A stretch of DNA of 64,000 nt from Eledone cirrhosa. Lineage: Eukaryota. Where the stretch lies: contig OZ024748.1 of assembly GCA_964016885.1 (NCBI GenBank), positions 29,822,001-29,886,000 of the forward strand, read 5' to 3'. The position numbers and the translations under genes were made by a program. Position 1 is the stretch's first letter. Each line of letters starts with the position of its first letter. A model generated the notes under the pieces. That model saw only the letters and a program-made list of their open reading frames with translations, had not been told where the DNA came from and searched no databases. Below are positions 22,116 to 35,580 of the stretch, piece by piece.

Positions 22116-24575
22116 TTCAATCTTGGAAATCACTAAGATAAAACAAGAAGACTGGATAGGGTTCGAGGATCAAGCTCCTAATCCAAATGGACAGAAACAA
22201 CAGAGGCCATCCCCGATGTTATCGACCTCGACGAAAATACCCATCTACGCGTGGCCGTGGAAGGTAGAAAAGCAATATGTCTCGTTTGTGGGAACAAATC
22301 CCACCTCAATGCCTTCTTCTCAAACAAAATCAAGGTGGGAACAAGACCCCATGTCATCAGGTCCCATGTTGGGAACATTCAACCATCTGCAGCAACTGTT
22401 GCTGCAAAAGTCTCGGCATCAACATCAGCACTGGCACCAGCACCAACATTTTCAAAAACAAAATCACCACCTCCACCACCAACAAGAACACCAACGCCAG
22501 TGGAAAACTTACTCCTCCCTGATATTACACAGTTTAACACTGAGTATGATGATGCTGAAGGGTGGCAAACCGTTGACTTGAGGAAAGCCAAAAGAAAAAA
22601 CAAAGAAAAGATCAAGCACTCAGCACCACCAGCCCCACTACCAACACAACCACCACCACCACCACCACCCACACTACCACCATAACAAACACCCACGCAA
22701 CCAATCACATGACCACCTACATCAACACCACAGGAAACACCGAAGACATCAGCAACACCGCATACGCAATACGCAGCAATAGATACAAACAACCAAAACC
22801 TTTTAGATGACACAACACTGACATTACACAAACATATTATGTACGGCCACAAAAAATTGCACCCCCACCACACAAACATTTTACAAATCACACAAAAGGC
22901 ATACACTTATAAAAACCAAGATCCTCGAGGCTGTTGGAGACTATAGAAGAACCTTTTCAAAGAGAATATATTCTGATGTTCTCGTGGAGAAACCCACACC
23001 GAGCCGGAGGCATGATTCACACACCCTACACCTAAAAAACAAAAGGTAAGTCTTTCTCCCTCACTTGCTTCCTCACACTTTATCGAACATGGCTTCTATC
23101 AGAATAGGCAGCATAAATGCACGCGGCCTGTGGTCGTCTTAGATAGGCTTCATAGACAGGGACCCAGCTACTGGAAGCTAAACGTGTCGTTCACGGTGCG
23201 CAAAGCCTACAGAGATTGGATTGGCGAATTAATTAAGCGGGCGTTGACGGTGGCAATCGACAACAACAAATGGTGGTTCGCCCTGCAAAGGACGATTAGA
23301 ATGGTGTCCATTAGGTTTAGTAATGCATTAGCAATAAGGAAAAATAGATCAGAGGGAGAACTAGTCAGAAAATTAGACTAGATGCTTAGTAAAAGCATCG
23401 TGACTGACGTGCTTGCGCCAAGATAGGCAGTCGACCAATTCTTCAACGCAAAGCACGAAGGCAGTGTTGTCAGAGCTAGGGCATGTGCTCTCAGACACAA
23501 GGGTACGAAAGCCGTTCGATGGACCCGAGTAGCGGAGGCGCGTCGTGGCAACAAAGCCACGATCTGGTCTCTGGAGGACCACGACGGGCGCACGTTACTG
23601 GATCCCTGGCAAATGTCTTCAGGCGCTTACAGCCCACGACCAATCAAGCAATGCGATCGGTGGAAACGCCACCTTGACTTTCTATAGAGGATTAGTGGAG
23701 GGAAAGAGCGACAGCGTCCTTGGGGACTCTGGGCGTCGACGAAAATCAACTAGCCAATCTCTTTGAGAGAATTTTCGGGCCGGGGCTCATGGACAACTTC
23801 CACAAAATCCCTGGCATGGCAGTGTTACCGAGGAGCTTTGCCAGTTCTGGATAAACTCTACAGGCATGGAAGTGCCGTTAGCCGGGCCTGTCCGAGATGC
23901 GCGCAGGGTGACGAAACCGTCCTGCACGCACTCGTCCAGTGTCCGAGCATTGCTGACTTGTGGGTTTATGTCGAACATCTGCTGTCGCGTGTAGGATGGA
24001 TCCAGCTATCAGGTGAGTCCATTGTGAGGATTACCCCGTCGTCTTCTTTAGCCAGGAAGGACAGGCAGTTTTTATCTGTCTGGTGGCCATGGTAAAAGAG
24101 ATCGTATGGTGGACACGTCTGAAAGGGTTGAAAACGGGTACTTTCCTCTTCGCTGACGCCCTCATTAACCTTTTCAGGTTTCACCTAAAAAGGAAAATCG
24201 GGGCGGAAAGGGAAGTGCTGCCTTCTAGCCAGTTTGTTGAAAGGTGGACGAGAGGCAAGAATGGCCCGTGTGAATGGGCCTACTCTGAGCGTGTGCCTGT
24301 AACATCGTAGGAGGAAAACTGGAAGAGGGCACTTGCCTTAGCGCTCAGAGTAACCGTGGCTTTTTGTGTGGGCTTTCTCCACGAGCCACACTCGGAAGTC
24401 TCCCCCCTGTTGGGAATTTTTTCGTTGTTTCTTTTTTTTGTCACATACTCTGTTTTTGTTTTTTACACGTAGAAATGCCCATTCGTACCGTCCTGTATTG
24501 CTCTGTGTTTCCTTAATGTTATACTTTGTGTCAACCTATGTGGTTAATAAAGAAAGCATTATTATAATTATTATT
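22116..24575 (+). mobile_element. Internally deleted Tx1-like copy (ORF1 3' part, ORF2 start, linker, 3' end)
   Basis: AVEGRKAICLVCGNKSHLNAF, MASIRIGSINARGL, GPSYWKLN, CPRCAQGDETVLHALVQCP; 3'UTR ends in a short (ATT)n. Confidence 0.85.
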
Positions 24576-25419
24576 ATTGAAGGTGAAACCACGCTTCTTA
24601 TCGGCTCCAGTTTTTTTCAACAGTATACCTCGATTTCAACCCTTCTTAACCCTTTATTCTAGTTTTAAACTTGATAAAAGTTTAGAAGTGACCCACCTAA
24701 TACGGCACCATTTTATGTCGTATTATGTAAATATTATTTGAAAAAAAAAAATTATTTCAACATGGATAACACAAGAAAGAGAGAGAGCGCTGTCAAACAA
24801 TACAGAGAGAGGGGGACTTTGACAACATGTCAGCAAGACAGCGTTCTAGCGAAGGTAAATATAAATATTACGAAGGAAAAGAGGAACAATATCATTTTTA
24901 ATGATATTGTTACAGATTTAAAATTGCCAAATATTACTAACACAAACAACACCAACAATAACACCAATAACAACAGCAACAACAAAAATAACAGCGATAA
25001 GCTCGAGAAAGACAATAACAATGACAATAACAACAACCACAAGACTCTTGAAAGAGAGAAAGCAAGAGAGGGAGAGAGATGGAGAGAGTAGGGAGTCAGA
25101 AAGAGAGAGAGAGGGAGATCCTTTTACACTTTTATTTGTTTCCGACATTGGAATGGAACCATGCTGGGAGGCCATATTTAGCCGAACATTTCATCGTTAG
25201 TCCAGTCTTTATTTCATCGATTTGTATTTGTAGAACTAGATAAAGAGTCACAAAGGTCAACGACACTGTATGTTTATATATATATATATATGTTTATATA
25301 TATATATATATATACACACACATATATATATAAGGTGAAACATTTATATATGTATATATATATATATGTACATATATATGTATATGTATATATATATGTA
25401 TATATATATATATATATAT

Positions 25420-25593
25420 AGGAACCAGTAAGACCCCGACGGCTGAGCTCAAGCCGTTTCGACGGCTAATTCTCGAAACGGCTTGAGCTCAGCCGTCGGG
25501 GTCTTACTGGTTCCTATTACCCACTCTACTACCCCAAGTATTGAGTACTTTGGTGCGTTATGGTCCACCTGGTTCCTTACCACATTTCCTTCG

Positions 25594-25595
<2 letters not shown>
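25420..25595 (-). repeat. Foldback repeat family copy with a perfect 42-bp-arm hairpin, between (TA)n tracts
   Basis: 25421-25462 is the exact reverse complement of 25473-25514. Confidence 0.85.
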
Positions 25596-25640
<45 letters not shown>

Positions 25641-25645
<5 letters not shown>

Positions 25646-25850
25646 ATAATAATAAATTTGAAGACTAAAATCCAAAGAGGGCTCGATAAGGATAAATATA
25701 TATCAAATATATAAGGCGGCGATTCTTTGCTTAGACTTTGATCTGTTATTTTAATAAATATTTGCTCTACGGTTCTTATATATTTGATATATATTTATCC
25801 TTATCGAGCCCTCTTTGGATTTTAGTCTTCAAATTTATTATTATTACTAT
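25641..25850. repeat. About 75-bp perfect inverted repeat enclosing a pLTR end fragment
   Basis: 25641-25715 is the reverse complement of 25776-25850. Confidence 0.85.
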
Positions 25851-25859
25851 ATATATATA

Positions 25860-26983
25860 TTTATTAAAATAACAGATTAGAGTTTGGGCGGGGAATCGCT
25901 GCTTTCACCCTTAGCGGGATCTTCTGGAGCTGACGGCGTCAATCTGTAGACGCAGAGGTGGATGTTTCAGGGAGCGTTGCAGCCGGAGGGGGACGGGAAG
26001 GCGATGCTTTGGTTCGTGGAGGCGTTCCCTGGCGGGGAGCGGGAGGGAACGAATATAATACGTCATTAATTACCTGTATGTTTTGTGAAGGTACGTATAC
26101 TTTCTCGTACGTATATTTGATTGTATATGTTATGGCGTATATTTTTATATATTCTGGTACATATGCTTTTGGTTATGTGTATACGGGAGTTTTGCGTCTG
26201 TGTGAGTATGCGGGTTCGTACGTATGTTGGATGTGTGTATATGTGTACTTCATGTTTTGGTTGACTTACGTCTCCGAACATTGGTGTATTTACATGTAGG
26301 TATGTGTGTGTGCTTGTTATATACGTATTTATTTTTTTATATACGTTTATTTAATTACTTATTTATTTGTATACACGCACACACACACACATACACATAT
26401 GTATATGTGCGTGGTTTTGTATACCTATGCCGAGTGTTTTCGCGTATGCTTGTGTATGTACGTATTTGGATGCGTGTATGTATTTATTTAATTTCAATTA
26501 CCTCTCTATTGTATTTTATTTACTTTATTCTTAACTCTGAAGCGGAGAATCATTCGGTTTCCTAGTTAGAATTTTAGTCTACGACTTCAGTTTACCATTT
26601 ACGTGGTTTTGTCTTTGCGTGCTATTGTTCTCCACGATCCACATATGACGTATTATCTTCGTTATTTCCGTTCATTGCCAGAGAACGTCTCTATGAACCA
26701 CCTAAGAGAACATTAGTCTACGACTTCTTTTATACCATAAACGTGGTTCTGTCTTTGTGTGTAATTGTTTTTCACCGCTCCGATTAATGACGTATTATTT
26801 CCCGTTCTTTGCCAGGGAGCTTTTCCATGAACCAAAGTATCGTCTTCCTGTCTTTCTCCGGTTGCAACGTTTTTTGAAATATCCACTTCTGCGTTTACAG
26901 ATTGATTTTGTTAGTTTCAGAAGATCCCGTTAAGGGTGAAAGCAGCGATTCTTTGCTTAAACTTTAATCTGTTATTTTAATAA

Positions 26984-26985
<2 letters not shown>
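25860..26985 (+). mobile_element. Non-coding PLE copy: inverted, A-to-G hypermutated pLTR (25860-26070) joined to the 3'UTR/pLTR (26068-26985)
   Basis: 26068-26985 aligns to 30150-31205; 25860-26070 aligns to 31323-31531. Confidence 0.85.
26898..26971 (+). ncRNA. Type I hammerhead ribozyme-like motif with a variant core
   Basis: AGUUU-CAGAAGA-U-CCC GUUAA GGG-U-GAAA-GCA(9 nt)UGCU-U-AAACU, with distal CAGAUU/AAUCUG pairing. Confidence 0.65.
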
Positions 26986-27014
<29 letters not shown>

Positions 27015-27071
27015 TATATATAAGGTGAAACATTTGTTCTCGGTATGGTAAACTAACTGTTGTGGAACTAC

Positions 27072-27141
<70 letters not shown>

Positions 27142-27154
27142 GTATATATATATG

Positions 27155-27888
27155 GTGGGTAAAATTCCCGAGATCCTTGGACGAGTTCTCTCCAGCAGTC
27201 TCTGTCCTTCATCATCGCCGCCATATCCAGTGTCTGTCCTTTGGGCATCAATATATGTCAACCTCGGACTCCCTCTTCTAGTGTGTCCGTGTAGGGGATC
27301 CCACAGGAACACTAAGTGCAGTGTCAACACTGAATGTCGGTGAGCATGTCCAGCTAACCTCAGTCTCCTCTGTGTTACTTTAATGTAGCCCTGGCTCAGA
27401 TCAGGAGAGTTAAGACTAAAAAGATATCAGGTGCTGAATTTGCTGATGACATAGTTCTGGTGACAAACACAGTGAAGGAGGCAGAGGATTTGATGCAGGA
27501 GGTGGAGACTGTGTCGCTGAGTGTGGGGCTGAGAATGAATGAGATTAAGACGAAGTATCTGGTAGAGAACATTAAGAAGCCAGAGAAGATTACTAATGTA
27601 GGTGGAAAGCTGCTAGAGTTGGTTGAGGACTTCCTGTATCTGGGAGCAAAGATTGGGAACACAGAGAATGATGTGGTGGAGAGGAAGAGCAAAGCCTGGG
27701 TGGCATGCCACAGTTTGAGGTCGGTGTGGCAGACAGACCTTCGTAAAGACCTGAAGATCCGTCTCTTCGTTGCTACAGTGGAGACTGTGCTACTGTACAG
27801 ATCTGAGACTTGGACAGTCATCAAGAAACTCAGATGGTGGATGGGTGCTACACGAGAATGCTGAGGATGGCTCTCAACATTAATCAGG
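27155..27888 (-). mobile_element. RTE LINE fragment with an inverted 5' segment (27396-27888 on +)
   Basis: + part: AEFADDIVL, FLYLG, VETVLLYRSETW, RMLRMALNI; - part: [30 protein letters not shown]. Confidence 0.8.
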
Positions 27889-27900
27889 ATATATATATAT

Positions 27901-28061
27901 AACGAAGGAAATGTGGTAAGGAACCCGGTGGACCATAACGCACCAAAGTACTCAATACTTAGGGTAGTAGAGTGGGTAATAGGAACGAGTAGGACCCCAA
28001 CTAGTCCAGAATTAGCCGTCGAAACGGCTTGATCTCAGCCGTCGGGGTCCTACTCGTTCCT
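27901..28061 (+). repeat. Foldback repeat family copy
   Basis: Reverse complement of 25420-25595 with the left arm partly deleted. Confidence 0.8.
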
Positions 28062-28134
28062 ATATATATATATAGACAACAAACAGGATAAATTTGGGTT
28101 TAAAACCTATAATAACCCCCCGTGTAACCCAGCA

Positions 28135-30051
28135 TTGCTACCCTTCGAAAATGATGCCTTGGAACTCATACGGAGTATCAAATTTCGGAATAGGAGCAAT
28201 TCCTTCCAGCAGAACCTGAAGAATATAATTCGTTCTATTAAGGATTCTAATGCCGTGCACGGCCATTCCGACAAAACTGGCAACCTATATCAAGTGGAGC
28301 GCAGTACTTACCATCAACTACTACATAATGCTGTACCTAAGGATTACCGTAAAACTAATCGGTGCGTCATCAATGAAATCAACGATGCTGGGTTTAAAAT
28401 CACCTCTGATCTCAACATCCTGGACCGGACCGAACCTCTGGACCCTATTTCTCCCCACTTTACCCTGAAGGATCACAAATCCAATTTTCCGAACAACCCC
28501 TCTATTCGGCTTATTAACCCTACGAAGTCCAATTTAGGTAGACTTAGTAAAAGGATTCTTGATAGAATTATACCAGAAATTAGAAGTTTGGCCCCTCTTG
28601 CACTGTGGAACAATTCTTTCGCGGTGATTGATTGGTTCAACGGCATATGTAACAAGGAACATTGCCGTTTTATCCAATTCGACATCAACAATTACTACTC
28701 CTCCATCACTTTACCACTTCTCCTTAGAGCTATCAATTTCGCTAAAACACTCACAGTGGTTAAGGATTTCGAAGTTGATGTCATCCTCAATGCGCGTAAG
28801 TCGGTGATTAATTTCGACGACTCTATTTGGATTAAAAAATCCAATAGTACCCCATTCGACGTGAGTATGGGCGCCAGCGATTCTGCGGAGGTTACTGATC
28901 TTATTGGCCTTTTCCTTCTTTTCTCTATCAAGGACGAATTCTCCAACGCGGGCGGTGGTTTGTACCGTGATGGTGGTCTTTTGACCATGACTAAGTGCGG
29001 ACCTCGTGCTTGCGACAGGTTCAGAAAAGAACTCACAGCCTTCTTTAAAGGCTTCAACCTCTCTATACAGGTTGAGGCCAATCTCTCGGTCGTTAATTAC
29101 CTCGATGTTACCCTCAATTTATCGAATGGGTTGTATTACCCGTATAGAAAGCCGAATGATACGCTTAATTACATAAGTAAGCATTCCAACCATCTTGCCA
29201 GCATAACCAAGAACCTGGTAAGAAACGTTTCGTTGAGGCTTTCCCGTCTATCTACTAACGAGCATATTTTCAACCACCATTCCACTTATTACAATGAAGC
29301 TCTTGCTCGGAGTGGATTTGTCGATAAGGTAGCATATACTGAGTACGAAAATAGACCTAGAAGAAATAGATCCCGTCGCATTTGTTGGTATAACCCACCA
29401 TATAGTATGGAGGTGACCACACCATTAGCTAAGATCTTTCTTTCCCTTATTACGAAGCATTTTCCCCCTACACATAAATATAGTAAACTTTTTAATAGAA
29501 ATACTATTAAAATTTTTTACTCTACGACTCCTAACATTGCACATAAAACCACAGCTTCAAATTTAGCTAAACTACCTAGCCGTAGGAACACGTGCAACCC
29601 TGTAGTTGGTACTAACTGTAAATGTAGGAATCGGGTTGATTGCCCCCTATCCGGGAAATGCCTCTCTAGTAACATTGTCTACAAATGTAAGGTTGAAACA
29701 CCCACGTCCCGTAGGGCCTACATAGGGTTAACCGCCAATAGATTCAAGCAGCGTCTTTACATGCAAACCCATTCTTTTCGTTACCCTCTAAGAAGGAATA
29801 TGACGTCACTTTCAGCTTATATCTGGAGTCTGAAAGACAACCACACCCAATATAAGTTACACTGGGAGATCCTAGATAGGGTTAGATCGTATAACGGAAA
29901 TAAAAGACCATGTGACCTCTGCGCCGCTGAGGCTCTGGAAATACTCTACGCCACAGACCACATCCTTAACAAAAAATCTGAGGCAATTTCGGCTTGTAAA
30001 CATAAATTGCACAAAAACTTTCCTCTATTACAGCCCCACGTTATACCCTAA
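28135..30051 (+). CDS. PLE reverse transcriptase-GIY-YIG endonuclease (open frame; catalytic YRDD reads YRDG)
   Basis: SDKTGNLY, KDHK..IRLINP, FDINNYYSSI, MGASDSAEV, LYRDGG, NYLDVT, WYNPPY, CNCR-like CKCR..CPLSGKC, IVYKC..AYIG..RFKQR, CDLCAAE. Confidence 0.85.
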   Translation: MLPFENDALELIRSIKFRNRSNSFQQNLKNIIRSIKDSNAVHGHSDKTGNLYQVERSTYHQLLHNAVPKDYRKTNRCVINEINDAGFKITSDLNILDRTEPLDPISPHFTLKDHKSNFPNNPSIRLINPTKSNLGRLSKRILDRIIPEIRSLAPLALWNNSFAVIDWFNGICNKEHCRFIQFDINNYYSSITLPLLLRAINFAKTLTVVKDFEVDVILNARKSVINFDDSIWIKKSNSTPFDVSMGASDSAEVTDLIGLFLLFSIKDEFSNAGGGLYRDGGLLTMTKCGPRACDRFRKELTAFFKGFNLSIQVEANLSVVNYLDVTLNLSNGLYYPYRKPNDTLNYISKHSNHLASITKNLVRNVSLRLSRLSTNEHIFNHHSTYYNEALARSGFVDKVAYTEYENRPRRNRSRRICWYNPPYSMEVTTPLAKIFLSLITKHFPPTHKYSKLFNRNTIKIFYSTTPNIAHKTTASNLAKLPSRRNTCNPVVGTNCKCRNRVDCPLSGKCLSSNIVYKCKVETPTSRRAYIGLTANRFKQRLYMQTHSFRYPLRRNMTSLSAYIWSLKDNHTQYKLHWEILDRVRSYNGNKRPCDLCAAEALEILYATDHILNKKSEAISACKHKLHKNFPLLQPHVIP

Positions 30052-31119
30052 CGGATAGTACGATCTATACGTGGATATTTTACGTCTTGATGTGGTAGCT
30101 AAGTATATGTTTTGTTTATACCATTACTTATTTGCATAGGTAAGTATATATTACCTGTATGTTTTGTGAAGGTACGTATACTTTCTCGTACGTATATTTG
30201 ATTGTATATGTTATGGCGTATAATTTTTTATATATTCTGGTACATATGGTTTGGTTATGTGTATACGGGAGTTTTACGTCTGTGTGAGTATGCAGGTTCG
30301 TACGTATGTTGGGTGTGTGTATATGTGTACTTCATGTTTTGGTTGACTTACGTTTCCGAACATTTGTGTATCTACATGTAGGTATGTGTGTGCGCTTGTT
30401 ATATACGTATTTATTTATTTATATACGTTTAGTTAATTGTTTATTTATTTGTATACACGCACACACACACACACATTTATATGTGCGTGGTTTTGTATAC
30501 CTATGGCAAGTGTTTTCGCGTATGCTTGTGTATGTACGTATTTGCATGCGTGTATGTATTTATTTAATTTCTATTACCTCTGTATTGTATTTTATTTACT
30601 TTATTCTTAACTCTGAAGCGGAGATTCATTCGGTTTCCTAGTTAGAATTTTAGTCTACGACTTCTGCTATACCATTTACGTGGTTTTGTCTTTGCGTGCA
30701 ATTGTTCTCCACGATCCACATACGACGTATTATCTTCGTTTTTTCCGTTTGCCAGAGAACGTCTCTATGAACCACCTAAGAGAACATTAGTCTACGACTT
30801 CTTTTATACCATAAACGTGGTTCTGTCTTTGCGCGTGATTGTTTTTCACCACTCCTATTAATGACGTATTATCTTCGTTTTTTCCGTTTGCCAGAGAACG
30901 TCTCTATGAACCACCTAAGAGAACATTAGTCTACGACTTCTTTTATACCATAAACGTGGTTCTGTCTTTGCGCGTGATTGTTTTTCACCGCTCCTATTAA
31001 TGACGTATTATATTCGTTTTTTCCCGTTCTTTGCCAGCGAACGTTTCCACGAACCTAAGTATCGTCTTCCTGTGTTCCTCCGGTTGCAACGTTTTTTGAA
31101 ATATCCAGTTCTGCGTTTT

Positions 31120-31193
31120 CAGATTGACTTTGTTAGTTTCAGAAGATCCCGTTAAGGGTGAAAGCAGCGATTCTTTGCTTAAACTTTAATCTG
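31120..31193 (+). ncRNA. Hammerhead-like motif, same variant as 26898
   Basis: Identical core and stems. Confidence 0.65.
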
Positions 31194-31209
31194 TTATTTT
31201 AATAAATAA

Positions 31210-31243
<34 letters not shown>

Positions 31244-31290
31244 TTATATATATATATTTATATATATATTTATATATATTTATGTATATA

Positions 31291-31322
<32 letters not shown>

Positions 31323-31327
<5 letters not shown>

Positions 31328-31645
31328 TAAAATAACAGATTAAAGTTTAAGCAAAGAATCGCTGCTTTCACCCTTAACGGGATCTTCTGAAACTAACAAA
31401 GTCAATCTGAAAACGCAGAACTGGATATTTCAAAAAACGTTGCAACCGGAGGAAGACAGGAAGACGATACTTTGGTTTGTGGAAACGTTCGCTGGCAAAG
31501 AACGGGAAAAAACGAATAATACGTCATTAATAGGAGCGGTGAAAAACAATTACGCGCAAAGACAGAACCACGTTTATGGTATAAAAGAGGTCGTAGACTA
31601 ATGTTCTCTTAGCTGGTGCATAGAGACGTTCTCTGGCAATGAACG
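31323..31645 (-). mobile_element. Inverted pLTR copy including the HHR motif, tail-to-tail across (TA)n
   Basis: Near-exact reverse complement of about 30885-31207. Confidence 0.9.
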
Positions 31646-31723
31646 AATACTTAAAAATAAGAAGAAAGCATGAACGGGAGAAAGTTTTCCTTCATCAGTT
31701 GTCTGCTGGAAGTCTCGGATATT

Positions 31724-31788
<65 letters not shown>

Positions 31789-32085
31789 TTATATGCATAC
31801 ATAAACAAACACATACGCACACATATACACAAACACACACACACACATACACACGCACGCAGACAGATGCCTACATACACAGGTACACATTACAGGCACA
31901 CATCACGCCCGACTCCAGCCTATATTAGTCCCATCCTGCTGTAAAACTGTCCACCCCTCCATCCTGTCACACTCACTGTACTTATTCCTTATCAAAACAG
32001 TTGCTGTTCTCCTTTAATAGGGTCTTTGTTTCTTATGTTAACATGATATCATGAGAGCTCTTATGCACGCCACGATGGGTGTGTG

Positions 32086-32168
<83 letters not shown>

Positions 32169-32176
32169 TCTCTCGC

Positions 32177-32212
<36 letters not shown>

Positions 32213-32217
32213 CGTGT

Positions 32218-32491
32218 GGAGGACGTGGCCTAGTGGTAAGGGTGTTAGACTTACGATCATAATGTCGTGGGTTCGATTCCCGAGTTGCGTGTTGTGCTTT
32301 TGAGCAAAACACTACATTGCACGTTGCTCCAGTATACTTAGCTGAAAATGAATACCAGCAATAGCTGGGGTTTTAACCCTGTGATGGACTTGCGTCCTGT
32401 CCAGGGGGGAGTCTTGTACTCTCAGTCGCTTCACGCCATGAAACCGGGATAAGCAATGGATGACCCTTCTGGCTTAAGACAGACTTTAGAC
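32218..32491 (+). mobile_element. SINE family 2, tRNA-derived, full length
   Basis: A box TGGCCTAGTGG, B box GGTTCGATTCC, body AACCCTGTGATGGACTTGCGTCCTGTCCAGGGG resembling conserved V/Meta-type SINE cores. Confidence 0.85.
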
Positions 32492-32507
32492 TATATATAT
32501 ATATATA

Positions 32508-32556
<49 letters not shown>

Positions 32557-32579
32557 ATATATATATATATGTATATATA

Positions 32580-32629
<50 letters not shown>

Positions 32630-32642
32630 TATATATATATAT

Positions 32643-32673
<31 letters not shown>

Positions 32674-32695
32674 CACACACATATATATATATATA

Positions 32696-32937
32696 GTCTA
32701 AAGTCTGTCTTAAGCCAGAAGGGTCATCCATTGCTTATCCCGGTTTCATGGCGTGAAGCCACTGAGAGTACAAGACTCCCCCCTGGACAGGACGCAAGTC
32801 CATCACAGGGTTAAAACCCCAGCTATTGCTGGTATTCATTTTCAGCTAAGTATACTGGAGCAACGTGCAATGTAGTGTTTTGCTCAAAAGCACAACACGC
32901 AACTCGGGAATCGAACCCACGACATTATGATCGTAAG

Positions 32938-32942
<5 letters not shown>
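32696..32942 (-). mobile_element. SINE family 2, inverted twin, truncated in the tRNA head
   Basis: Reverse complement of 32245-32491 with one visible mismatch. Confidence 0.9.
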
Positions 32943-32984
<42 letters not shown>

Positions 32985-32987
<3 letters not shown>

Positions 32988-35580
32988 TCGACTCCTTTCT
33001 CTCCTTCTTCTGCTCCTTCCACCCCTCCCTCCACTTCACCACCTCTATCTCCACCACCCACGTCCACTTCTTAGACATCTCCGTCGCCTTCGACCCCTCC
33101 CACCACTCCCTCGTCACCTCCGCCTTCTTCAAACCCACCGACTCCCACTCTTACCTCGACTTCACCTCTTCCCACCCCACACACACTAAACGCTCTATTC
33201 CCTACTCCCAACTCCTCAGGATCCGCCGCCTCTGTAGCCGAGATGCCGACTTTGAGTCCAAGGCCCTTTCCCTAGTCAGCCATTTCATCCGCAGAGGATA
33301 CCCCCCCTCTCTCGTCCACACCGCTCTCACCCGCGCCCGTGCTGTCCACCGCTCCACCACCCTCACCCCACGCCACCGCACACCCACCCACCGCCTCCCC
33401 TTCCCCATCACCTACCACCCCTCCACCATACCCCTCCACCGCACCATCCTCCGCCTCTTCCGACGCCTCCAGTCCGACCCCTCCACCTCCCACATCTTCC
33501 CATCCCCACCACTCCCCTCCTTCAAACGCGCACGCAATCTCCGCACCCTCCTCGTCCACAGCTCACTACCCCCAACCCACGCTCTCTTCCCCCCCGGTCC
33601 TTTCCCTGTTCTAGGCCCCGCTGCAACACCTGGCCCCACATCACCAACACCACCACCTTCCAGGGTCCCAACGGCCACTCTCTCTCTGTCCAGCATGCCT
33701 TCCGCTGCACCTCCTCCAACCTAGTCTACGGACTTCGCTGCACGGTGTGCAGCGCGACTTACGTCGGACAGACTGGACGTCGCCTGGCGGACAGATTTAC
33801 TGAGCACCTCCGGGATATTCGTCTCGGTGGTAGTACCCCCATCGCCCGCCACTTTGGTGCCCCTGGACATTCCGCACGCCATCTCACTGTCTGTGGCCTA
33901 CTCCAATGCCACGGAACACCCGCCAACTTCCTAAGAGTTGAACAACGAACCATCTTCATCTTACAGACCCATACTCCCCCCGGCCTGAACTCCCCACCCT
34001 TATTCCTTTAGCTTTCGACCGCCCCCTCCATCCACACATATCCCCCACTAACACCACTAACACACCCCTCCTTTTCACCGCCCACCCCACAACTAACAAT
34101 ACTAACACCTCTACCCCACATCCGACCACCCTTCCCCAACTAACATACTAACATCCCTCCCTTCTTCTCCTCCCCCCTCCTTATCACACGCACACATCCA
34201 CCGGCACATATATACACGCGCTCACACTAAACACACACCCTACTACCACCACTAATCCTCACCCCAACACATCCACCCCACCACCCCGCAACTAACATCA
34301 CTAACACACCCTGACCCCAAGCACACGAACACACACACCCACTTACACCACCCACCCTACACGCAACTAACATCACTAACACCCCCCAACCCTACGCACA
34401 CGTACACACACACCCTCTTACACCACCCACTCTACACACCTACCACCACTGACCCCCACTCACACCCGCATTCAACCCTTTCTCCACCTCCTGTATACTA
34501 ACACCCACTAACACCCCCTTCACCAAACACACACACCAGTACACCATACTCCCTCCATCGACCCCCACACCCTTCTCTCCCCACTCCACCCACACCCTTT
34601 CTCAAACACTCACTCATCCCACTAACACCTCTACTAATACACACACACACACCCTCCTTACTCCAACTTTCACACCTACCCATCCTCTCCCCCTTACCAT
34701 TCTACCCTACTGCTGCTATGCCCTCTGACCACCTCCCCGCACACACAGACACACAACACACACTCACCATTTTACCCTACTGCTGCTATGCCCTCTGACC
34801 ACAGACACACCACACTCCTCCTGCCTTGACCACTTCCTGTTGCGCGCGCACCCCACATCTCCCCTCTTCCGACCAATCTCTTCACGGATTACACGTATGT
34901 GAACCTTGATCCCGGAATCAACCACAATCAAGGATTTTACCAAGCATCCCACCACATCTTCTTACGGAATCACCTTTATGACTCACCCACACACACACAC
35001 CCAAAAATAATTTTTTTTCCCACACGCCACCTACACCCACAACACGCTTAAACACCACACACACACGTGCGTACCACCACATATTCACACCTCTATCCAC
35101 ACCCGCACACACACTCCGACCTACACCCCACCCCACACACACCTCTTCCTGAACATGCAACCCCGTTCTTCCCCCAACCCTTGCTTTCACATACACACAC
35201 ACACACACACGTACACCTACACACACACACCACCTTCAGCCCTCCCCGCTCGGACATCCCGTCTCCCTCTCCCCACTCCACCCGCCACCACCTCTACACG
35301 CCCCACACCCTTCCACCACCTGTTTTACCCCATTTTAATTTTATTTTGATCATGCCTTTATTTTTAATTTCATTTGCACCGTTTCCTCTCACCCCCTTTT
35401 TGCTATATGTCTCTCCACCACTCCCCTACACACCCTTTGAACTCTCTTCCCACACACTTTTCACCTGAAGAAGGGCTTATGCCCGAAACGTCGTTCCCCA
35501 CCACCACCCCACTCTCAAGAGCGTGAAATTAATAAACATTTGTTGTACTGCCTCTCTGTTTTGTTCCCGTTCAATTTTTC

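Follow-up and report, generated by a model that had tools for sequence, protein, structure and literature searches.

A 64,000-nt stretch of the Eledone cirrhosa genome (assembly GCA_964016885.1, contig OZ024748.1, positions 29,822,001 to 29,886,000; hereafter the window, in whose numbering positions are given) contains an insertion of a Penelope-like element, called here the window insert, in whose paired arms about 40% of the A letters have been changed to G. This A-to-G cluster is best explained as the DNA record of ADAR hyper-editing of a Penelope-like read-through RNA, which the reverse transcriptase encoded by the element would have copied into a (TA)n site of germ-line DNA, the edits being a rare by-product found in about 0.1% of copies (probability about 0.85 for the explanation as a whole). 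A-to-G clusters on one strand, a bias in the neighbouring letters, confinement of the changes to pairable segments, a flanking duplication and the anatomy of the insert were all observed. A probable target-site duplication, 5' truncation and later divergence (about 28 changes between a pair of twin arms described below) were found, as expected of a germ-line retrocopy.

Edits and layout of the window insert

Most of the changes lie in an antisense arm of about 210 nt (25857-26070, minus strand) that corresponds to the pseudo-long terminal repeat (pLTR) of the element and is hyper-edited on the plus strand. Compared with the family majority, which was built from 82 aligned segments of 60 fetched loci, this arm shows 34 A-to-G changes, three transversions, two of which are common family variants (columns 94 and 164), and no T-to-C, G-to-A or C-to-T change. 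Comparison of 25855-26075 with the sibling copy at 31318-31540 returned 34 A-to-G changes and five other substitutions in the homologous part, the same numbers that a preliminary description of this DNA had estimated by eye. Apart from L003, a second edited locus with 28 A-to-G changes in 178 nt, the other 80 segments contain between zero and four such changes each. With a background of 58 changes among 6001 A letters, the chance of finding 34 changed among 76 is about 1e-47. The opposite arm of the hairpin, formed by the final 48 nt of a sense pLTR (25713-25760, plus strand), has four of its 17 A letters changed to G on the same strand as the edited antisense arm and carries no other change; both complementary arms are altered, as the preliminary description had noted. 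A letters preceded by G were changed in three of 16 cases in the antisense arm, compared with 31 of 60 for the remaining A letters (p = 0.024). The sparing of A after G is therefore a strong tendency, with three exceptions instead of the single one reported at first.

The edits are limited to segments that could form a duplex, and fold-back arms are hit on one strand, in the window insert and in two other loci. In the window insert 38 of the 99 A letters in the paired arms are changed, versus none of the 20 in the loop (p = 3e-4). L101 is a short head-to-head insert with changes in both arms, all on one strand (9/25 and 7/23, together 16/48), and with none at the 20 A letters of its unpaired tail (p = 0.002). 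L102 has nine of 33 A letters changed in the antisense arm and four of 27 in the pairable part of the sense arm (13/60), versus none of 91 in the unpaired tail and overhang (p = 3e-6).

The insert is enclosed by a direct duplication of about 45 bp (25301-25345 and 26987-27035, both plus strand), the two copies of which differ by one mismatch and a 4-nt microsatellite gap in an alignment that includes a non-repetitive stretch; such a probable target-site duplication is expected around a single insertion. A (TA)-rich run carrying an unrelated repeat lies to the left. The insert itself begins with an inverted 5' arm (25643-25715, minus strand), a reverse copy of the family tail in which none of the 37 A letters is changed, and continues with the 48 nt of sense pLTR and with an optional 87-nt element tail (25761-25847, plus strand), which is the unedited loop of the hairpin and is identical in four of 20 sampled copies. 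The loop also includes a short (TA)n run (25848-25860). After the edited antisense arm follow about 920 nt of sense 3' untranslated region (UTR) and pLTR end (26069-26987, plus strand), which are tail-less and unedited (three A-to-G changes among 38 mixed differences). On folding, 25713-25915 gave a 50-bp stem with the tail as its loop. The outer ends of the insert obey the rule of the family, with a tail at the left end and none at the right. The 'spacer' of the preliminary description is the family tail, and the inverted 5' arm and the duplication had been missed. Sense direction is set by a separate 5'-truncated long copy of the same family (28075-31210, plus strand) with an open reading frame (ORF) at 28081-30051. 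Together with an unedited antisense pLTR (31320-31645, minus strand) this copy forms a tail-to-tail hairpin, which had been put forward as the mirror of the window insert. It is only an analogue and a comparison copy; it has no tail and is not the source.

Several steps could have led to this structure. Repeated insertion into (TA)n runs beside earlier copies would build inverted arrays, and the transcript would have consisted of sense pLTR with tail, (UA)n, antisense pLTR and sense UTR with pLTR, its first two arms pairing with the tail in the loop. ADAR would have deaminated some 40% of the paired A letters and left the loop and the last sense arm alone. Reverse transcription, which likely started at the tail-less end of the 26069-26987 arm, would have read inosine as G, passed through the edited arm and the loop, and halted 48 nt into the 5' arm, while priming of the other target strand at the tail end would have given the short inverted arm. 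In such a scheme the edits would act as barcodes of single template molecules.

Edited copies elsewhere in the genome

The genome was searched with patterns allowing A or G at each A of the pLTR, with one or two positions fixed as G. Ten independent edited loci were obtained in all, namely the window insert, L003, L081, L094, L095, L099, L100, L101, L102 and L103, which lie on seven contigs and have distinct edit sets. The sense-strand pattern with one fixed G yielded two clusters (L094, with 4/18 A letters changed, and L095, with 9/35) among 89 matches, and L101 and L102 also contain sense-strand clusters; a sense-strand pattern in which two G were fixed matched nothing. The antisense pattern with one fixed G gave 114 matches; of the 100 that were listed, 84 had one G, nine had two, none had three or four and seven had five or six, where the expected number with at least four extra G is 1e-5. 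Ten of the 11 two-G matches and one match at a contig end were fetched, and none was dense (0-9 A-to-G changes among mixed changes). L003 has 159 A-to-G changes in 914 nt. It shares 21 edited sites with the window insert, out of 36 and 34, respectively, so that these unrelated copies have 43% of their edited sites in common; without the sites preceded by G this is not above chance (p = 0.19). Each molecule is edited at a different subset of sites.

Thirteen edited segments were pooled and contained 307 A-to-G versus 58 other changes. As these segments were chosen for being edited, the density is a selected property; the neighbour bias and the segment borders are not. The edited share by 5' neighbour was 47% after T (95/200), 44% after A (164/369), 28% after C (37/133) and 8% after G (10/132). 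The difference between A letters preceded by G and the others (10/132 versus 296/702) has a p value of 1.6e-16, or 1.6e-8 without L003. Depletion of an upstream G is a common ADAR signature according to passages in PMC5625713 and PMC8586724.

By rough scaling, about 22 of 26,801 copies of the family would be edited. The central idea of the preliminary description, a hairpin transcript that was hyper-edited and then retrotransposed, has held through the formal test of 5'-G depletion in the window insert and in the pooled segments, the check for a separate G-rich subfamily, the genome-wide search for edited retrocopies, which added nine independent clusters, and the test for pairing. The hairpin at 30.9-31.6 kb did not hold as a source, and a role of ADAR as a defence against Penelope-like elements is unsupported when about 0.1% of copies are edited; these counts cover inserted copies only.

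The L003 junction is present at two places in the genome. The second, L114, lies 9.6 kb away and faces L003, with several other TA-site repeats between them. Over 560 nt the two have 95 of 97 A-to-G changes (98%) and the junction in common, and differ by about 28 mixed substitutions, so the edit pattern is old and present twice in the assembly. L114 carries a tail that L003 does not have, and lacks 355 nt that are present in L003. Neither can be a plain copy of the other; edits, junction and tail must therefore have been together on a single template from which both derive. Most simply, by analogy with Penelope-like elements in vitro, one RNA would have been copied from two start sites on two target strands; inverted copying at the DNA level onto a tailed element already in place is another possibility. 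This twin-arm case is a single pair, and a search of the whole window and of about 10 kb around seven further edited loci (L100 was left out) found no twin arms. In all nine loci of the family an ORF-sense pLTR stands at the end of the strand that reads A-to-G, an arrangement more in keeping with a sense template than with the antisense one put forward in PMC3846280. We lean slightly towards a wider reading in which ADAR edits have been written repeatedly into the germ line by the Penelope-like reverse transcriptase, and in which the edit-set barcodes would record one ORF-sense read-through RNA that served as template twice, with copying started at its tail end for one target strand and at its tail-less end for the second.

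Three further observations concern the neighbourhood of edited copies. The edited copy in L100 (2150-2700; G000:C1:282368452) belongs to a different, apparently non-autonomous repeat with an antisense piece of pLTR, and its A-to-G changes run through about 400 nt beyond that piece (25 relative to L109 and 44 relative to a copy near L003), indicating that a second element was edited too. Copies of the L100-type derivative in L109 (1456-1580) and L110 (1452-1571) have four A-to-G differences from the majority in common, which possibly reflect a lightly edited founder that later spread, or ordinary subfamily variants. At L099 (2470-2782) the edited antisense arm follows another antisense arm that is unedited and flanked by the same microsatellite, as if a neighbouring copy had been the source or the site had been duplicated.

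Alternative origins of the clusters

Several results count against the proposed origin and have to be set beside the alternatives. The role of ADAR is read here from the pattern of the edits. The edited share by 3' neighbour (G 60/125, 0.48; C 74/161, 0.46; A 133/370, 0.36; T 39/178, 0.22) does not show, as per-site rates, the downstream-A preference that passages of PMC5625713 give for invertebrate hyper-edited reads, although the two measures differ. The terminal sense arm is unedited in five of the nine family loci (the window insert, L003, L081, L099 and L103; one A-to-G change among 253 A letters) though it could pair with the edited arm. In the window insert the clean terminal arm can be understood because the edited upstream sense arm was captured, offering a pairing partner; for L003, L081, L099 and L103 an upstream or trans partner would have to be assumed, the window insert being the only locus where one is seen. 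Exact-junction searches for an unedited parent, which covered the window insert and L003, found the window junction only in the window and the L003 junction only in L003 and its edited twin. Finally, no short-read contig of four public runs (X1-X4) carried the edited letters, although these runs may be of another animal.

The clean terminal arm and the missing parent are also what would be expected if the insert were a mosaic, in which editing is real and reverse transcriptase, having started on an unedited sense RNA, moved at 26069 to another molecule, an edited hairpin RNA. In the window insert the last sense arm is unedited although it is complementary to the edited arm, and its junction with the antisense arm occurs once in the genome and has a 2-nt overlap. 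A junction of this kind is found with shared edits in both arms of the L003/L114 pair, however, so that there the junction preceded copying. We consider a mosaic unlikely; it would alter the step that produced the anatomy and not the ADAR origin, and its weight is counted within the confidence given for the proposed origin.

Hypermutation caused by the nucleotide pool is a known property of reverse transcriptases, and the changes could have been made at the level of the cDNA, either by incorporation of deoxyguanosine opposite U at scarce deoxyadenosine triphosphate or by ADAR acting on deoxyadenosines in a cDNA:RNA hybrid, the plus strand being the first-strand cDNA. ADAR does deaminate deoxyadenosine in DNA/RNA hybrids with its usual sequence preferences (PMC5389660), and in most loci the edited strand is antisense to the ORF, which is the polarity of cDNA. 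A hybrid or pool effect should nevertheless cover the whole copied stretch, and the tails and unpaired parts beside and between the edited arms are clean. Sense-strand clusters are present (L094, L095, L101 and L102), and 95 of 97 changes in common between two separately placed arms are unlike independent cDNA events. A cDNA-level origin is therefore very improbable.

An artefact of assembly or polishing, in which the G letters would be absent from the DNA of the animal, would account for the short-read contigs without edited letters. At 92% likeness these contigs left 25926-25995 and 26036-26072 without cover. Within a stretch of low-depth contig cover at 25994-26090, what matched 25996-26033 were relatives that differ at one to three positions. 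In the best run 0.50 of the sampled words were present, and 60% of the words avoid the edited stretches. Building of short-read contigs probably loses low-depth paths beside very high-depth repeats, so that holes prove nothing. Since the short-read contigs neither confirm nor refute the edits, the case against an artefact is carried by the ten loci on seven contigs, with distinct patterns, an ADAR-like context and sharp stops at duplex ends, and by the pattern whose two copies, 9.6 kb apart, have since acquired about 28 independent differences. We regard an artefact as very improbable. In run X4 a low-depth contig of a second sample extends past 25926 with several A-to-G changes relative to the majority, in a pattern unlike that of the window insert; it could come from a transcript that was edited or from a further edited copy in the genome.

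A G-rich subfamily or ordinary mutation deserves almost no credence, as the edited arm has 82-85% identity to its best other matches, with no G-rich sister among them (best 40 of 2205 candidates scored), and the 100 listed one-G matches jump from one or two to five or six G, even if a few A-to-G variants recur in ordinary copies (column 118, and the four common to L109 and L110).

The element family and known systems

A 34-mer taken from the pLTR end matches the genome 26,801 times and a 31-mer of the 87-nt tail has 10,873 exact matches, the tail trailing the pLTR end in some copies. The possibility that 25761-25847 belongs to a second family was ruled out, as the 31-mer pattern shows it to be the family's own optional tail. 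In six of 15 long copies a pLTR end or tail stands immediately ahead of the ORF start, which is the pLTR arrangement. The protein of 28081-30051 has 408 homologues and no match in Pfam, PDB sequence or profile searches. Its predicted model (mean predicted local distance difference test score 87) has telomerase chains as the top two matches and as six of the top eight, with template modelling scores of 0.27-0.41, consistent with a single ORF with a predicted telomerase-related reverse transcriptase fold. Among the matches listed for this protein there is no profile or fold match to a C-terminal GIY-YIG endonuclease; a pair of strands seen by eye in the open frame is a candidate GIY-YIG-like motif. 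No hammerhead ribozyme family is included in the 83 Rfam matches (to E 5) in 24500-33000. By eye, and unscored by Rfam, the sense pLTR end at 31135-31185 and 26915-26965 has a hammerhead-like layout with a variant core, and several of the sense-strand edits fall within this layout.

A pLTR, an inverted 5' copy and an optional tail are described as features of Penelope-like elements in passages of PMC8557442 and PMC3846280. The family resembles such elements in its partial tandems, head-to-head arms, one-end tail and AT-rich or microsatellite targets (passages of PMC8557442, PMC3846280 and PMC11167929), and differs from those described there in that its tail is 87 nt long and theirs 30-40. PMC11167929 shows in vitro that reverse transcription has two start sites with the tail between them, and that cutting and extension take place on both target strands. 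All five short unedited head-to-head inserts considered (L105, L106, L107, L112 and L146) have a tail on exactly one arm. In many short head-to-head inserts (L101, L105, L107, L111, L112 and L146) the arms meet at a preferred junction, a small palindrome that lies about 70 nt ahead of the pLTR end. The edits provide in-genome evidence on the polarity of the template, the ORF-sense 3' end speaking, for these events, against the antisense template proposed in PMC3846280, and they also bear on whether one template feeds both arms of Penelope-like inserts.

Other repeats are found in and near the window insert. A very palindromic, unrelated short repeat that targets (TA)n lies within the duplicated interval (25420-25596, minus strand) and matches 27885-28070 on the opposite strand with mixed substitutions; it is also present beside L095, L103, L114 and L077 and is likely another non-autonomous element. 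A 139-bp internal UTR unit is doubled in the long copy (30724-31001) relative to 26650-26788. At 32245-32942, a repeat with a tRNA-like head forms a 349-bp inverted repeat (95%) around a (TA)n centre, a potential long duplex.

PMC8586724 cites ADAR-linked A-to-G hyperediting of two avian retroviruses, RAV-1 (Felder 1994) and avian leukosis virus (Hajjar and Linial 1995), and there too A-to-I edits on the RNA of a retro-element are fixed as A-to-G after reverse transcription. Those viruses are exogenous, whereas here the element is non-viral, Penelope-like and inherited, with at least ten edited chromosomal loci, and the duplex comes from the element's own inverted insertions. APOBEC-edited retrotransposons with long terminal repeats (LTR) similarly show strand-biased clusters of one substitution in genomic copies relative to a family consensus (passages of PMC4866542). 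The changes there are G-to-A, made on cDNA and confined to vertebrate LTR elements; the present clusters would be the RNA-level counterpart. Other cluster types were negligible there, and 19 invertebrate genomes were at noise level, in a screen that covered LTR elements and not Penelope-like ones. Dense A-to-G changes in repeat-derived duplexes with depleted upstream G are also described for hyper-edited RNA reads across Metazoa in passages of PMC5625713, where octopus is among the highest for such reads from inverted repeats; those edits are in transcripts only, unlike the edits in the genome described here. In the open-access literature searched, supplements excluded, no report was found of ADAR-edited genomic copies of a non-viral inherited retrotransposon.

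If the proposed origin is correct, RNA editing in an animal would lead directly to heritable change in its DNA, which the searched literature otherwise describes only for exogenous retroviruses, and ADAR would act on transposon RNA in cells from which the next generation arises. Edited copies look 20% diverged though they are young, which would distort the dating of repeats. Because the edits identify both the RNA strand and the individual molecule from which an insertion was made, genome sequence could then be used to address two open questions on Penelope-like elements, namely whether the template is sense or antisense and how the inverted arms and the one-sided tail originate. Should the reading of one RNA copied twice also be true, the polarity of the template in vivo and the origin of head-to-head arms would be settled, and the edited copies would be a dated fossil record of germ-line RNA editing.
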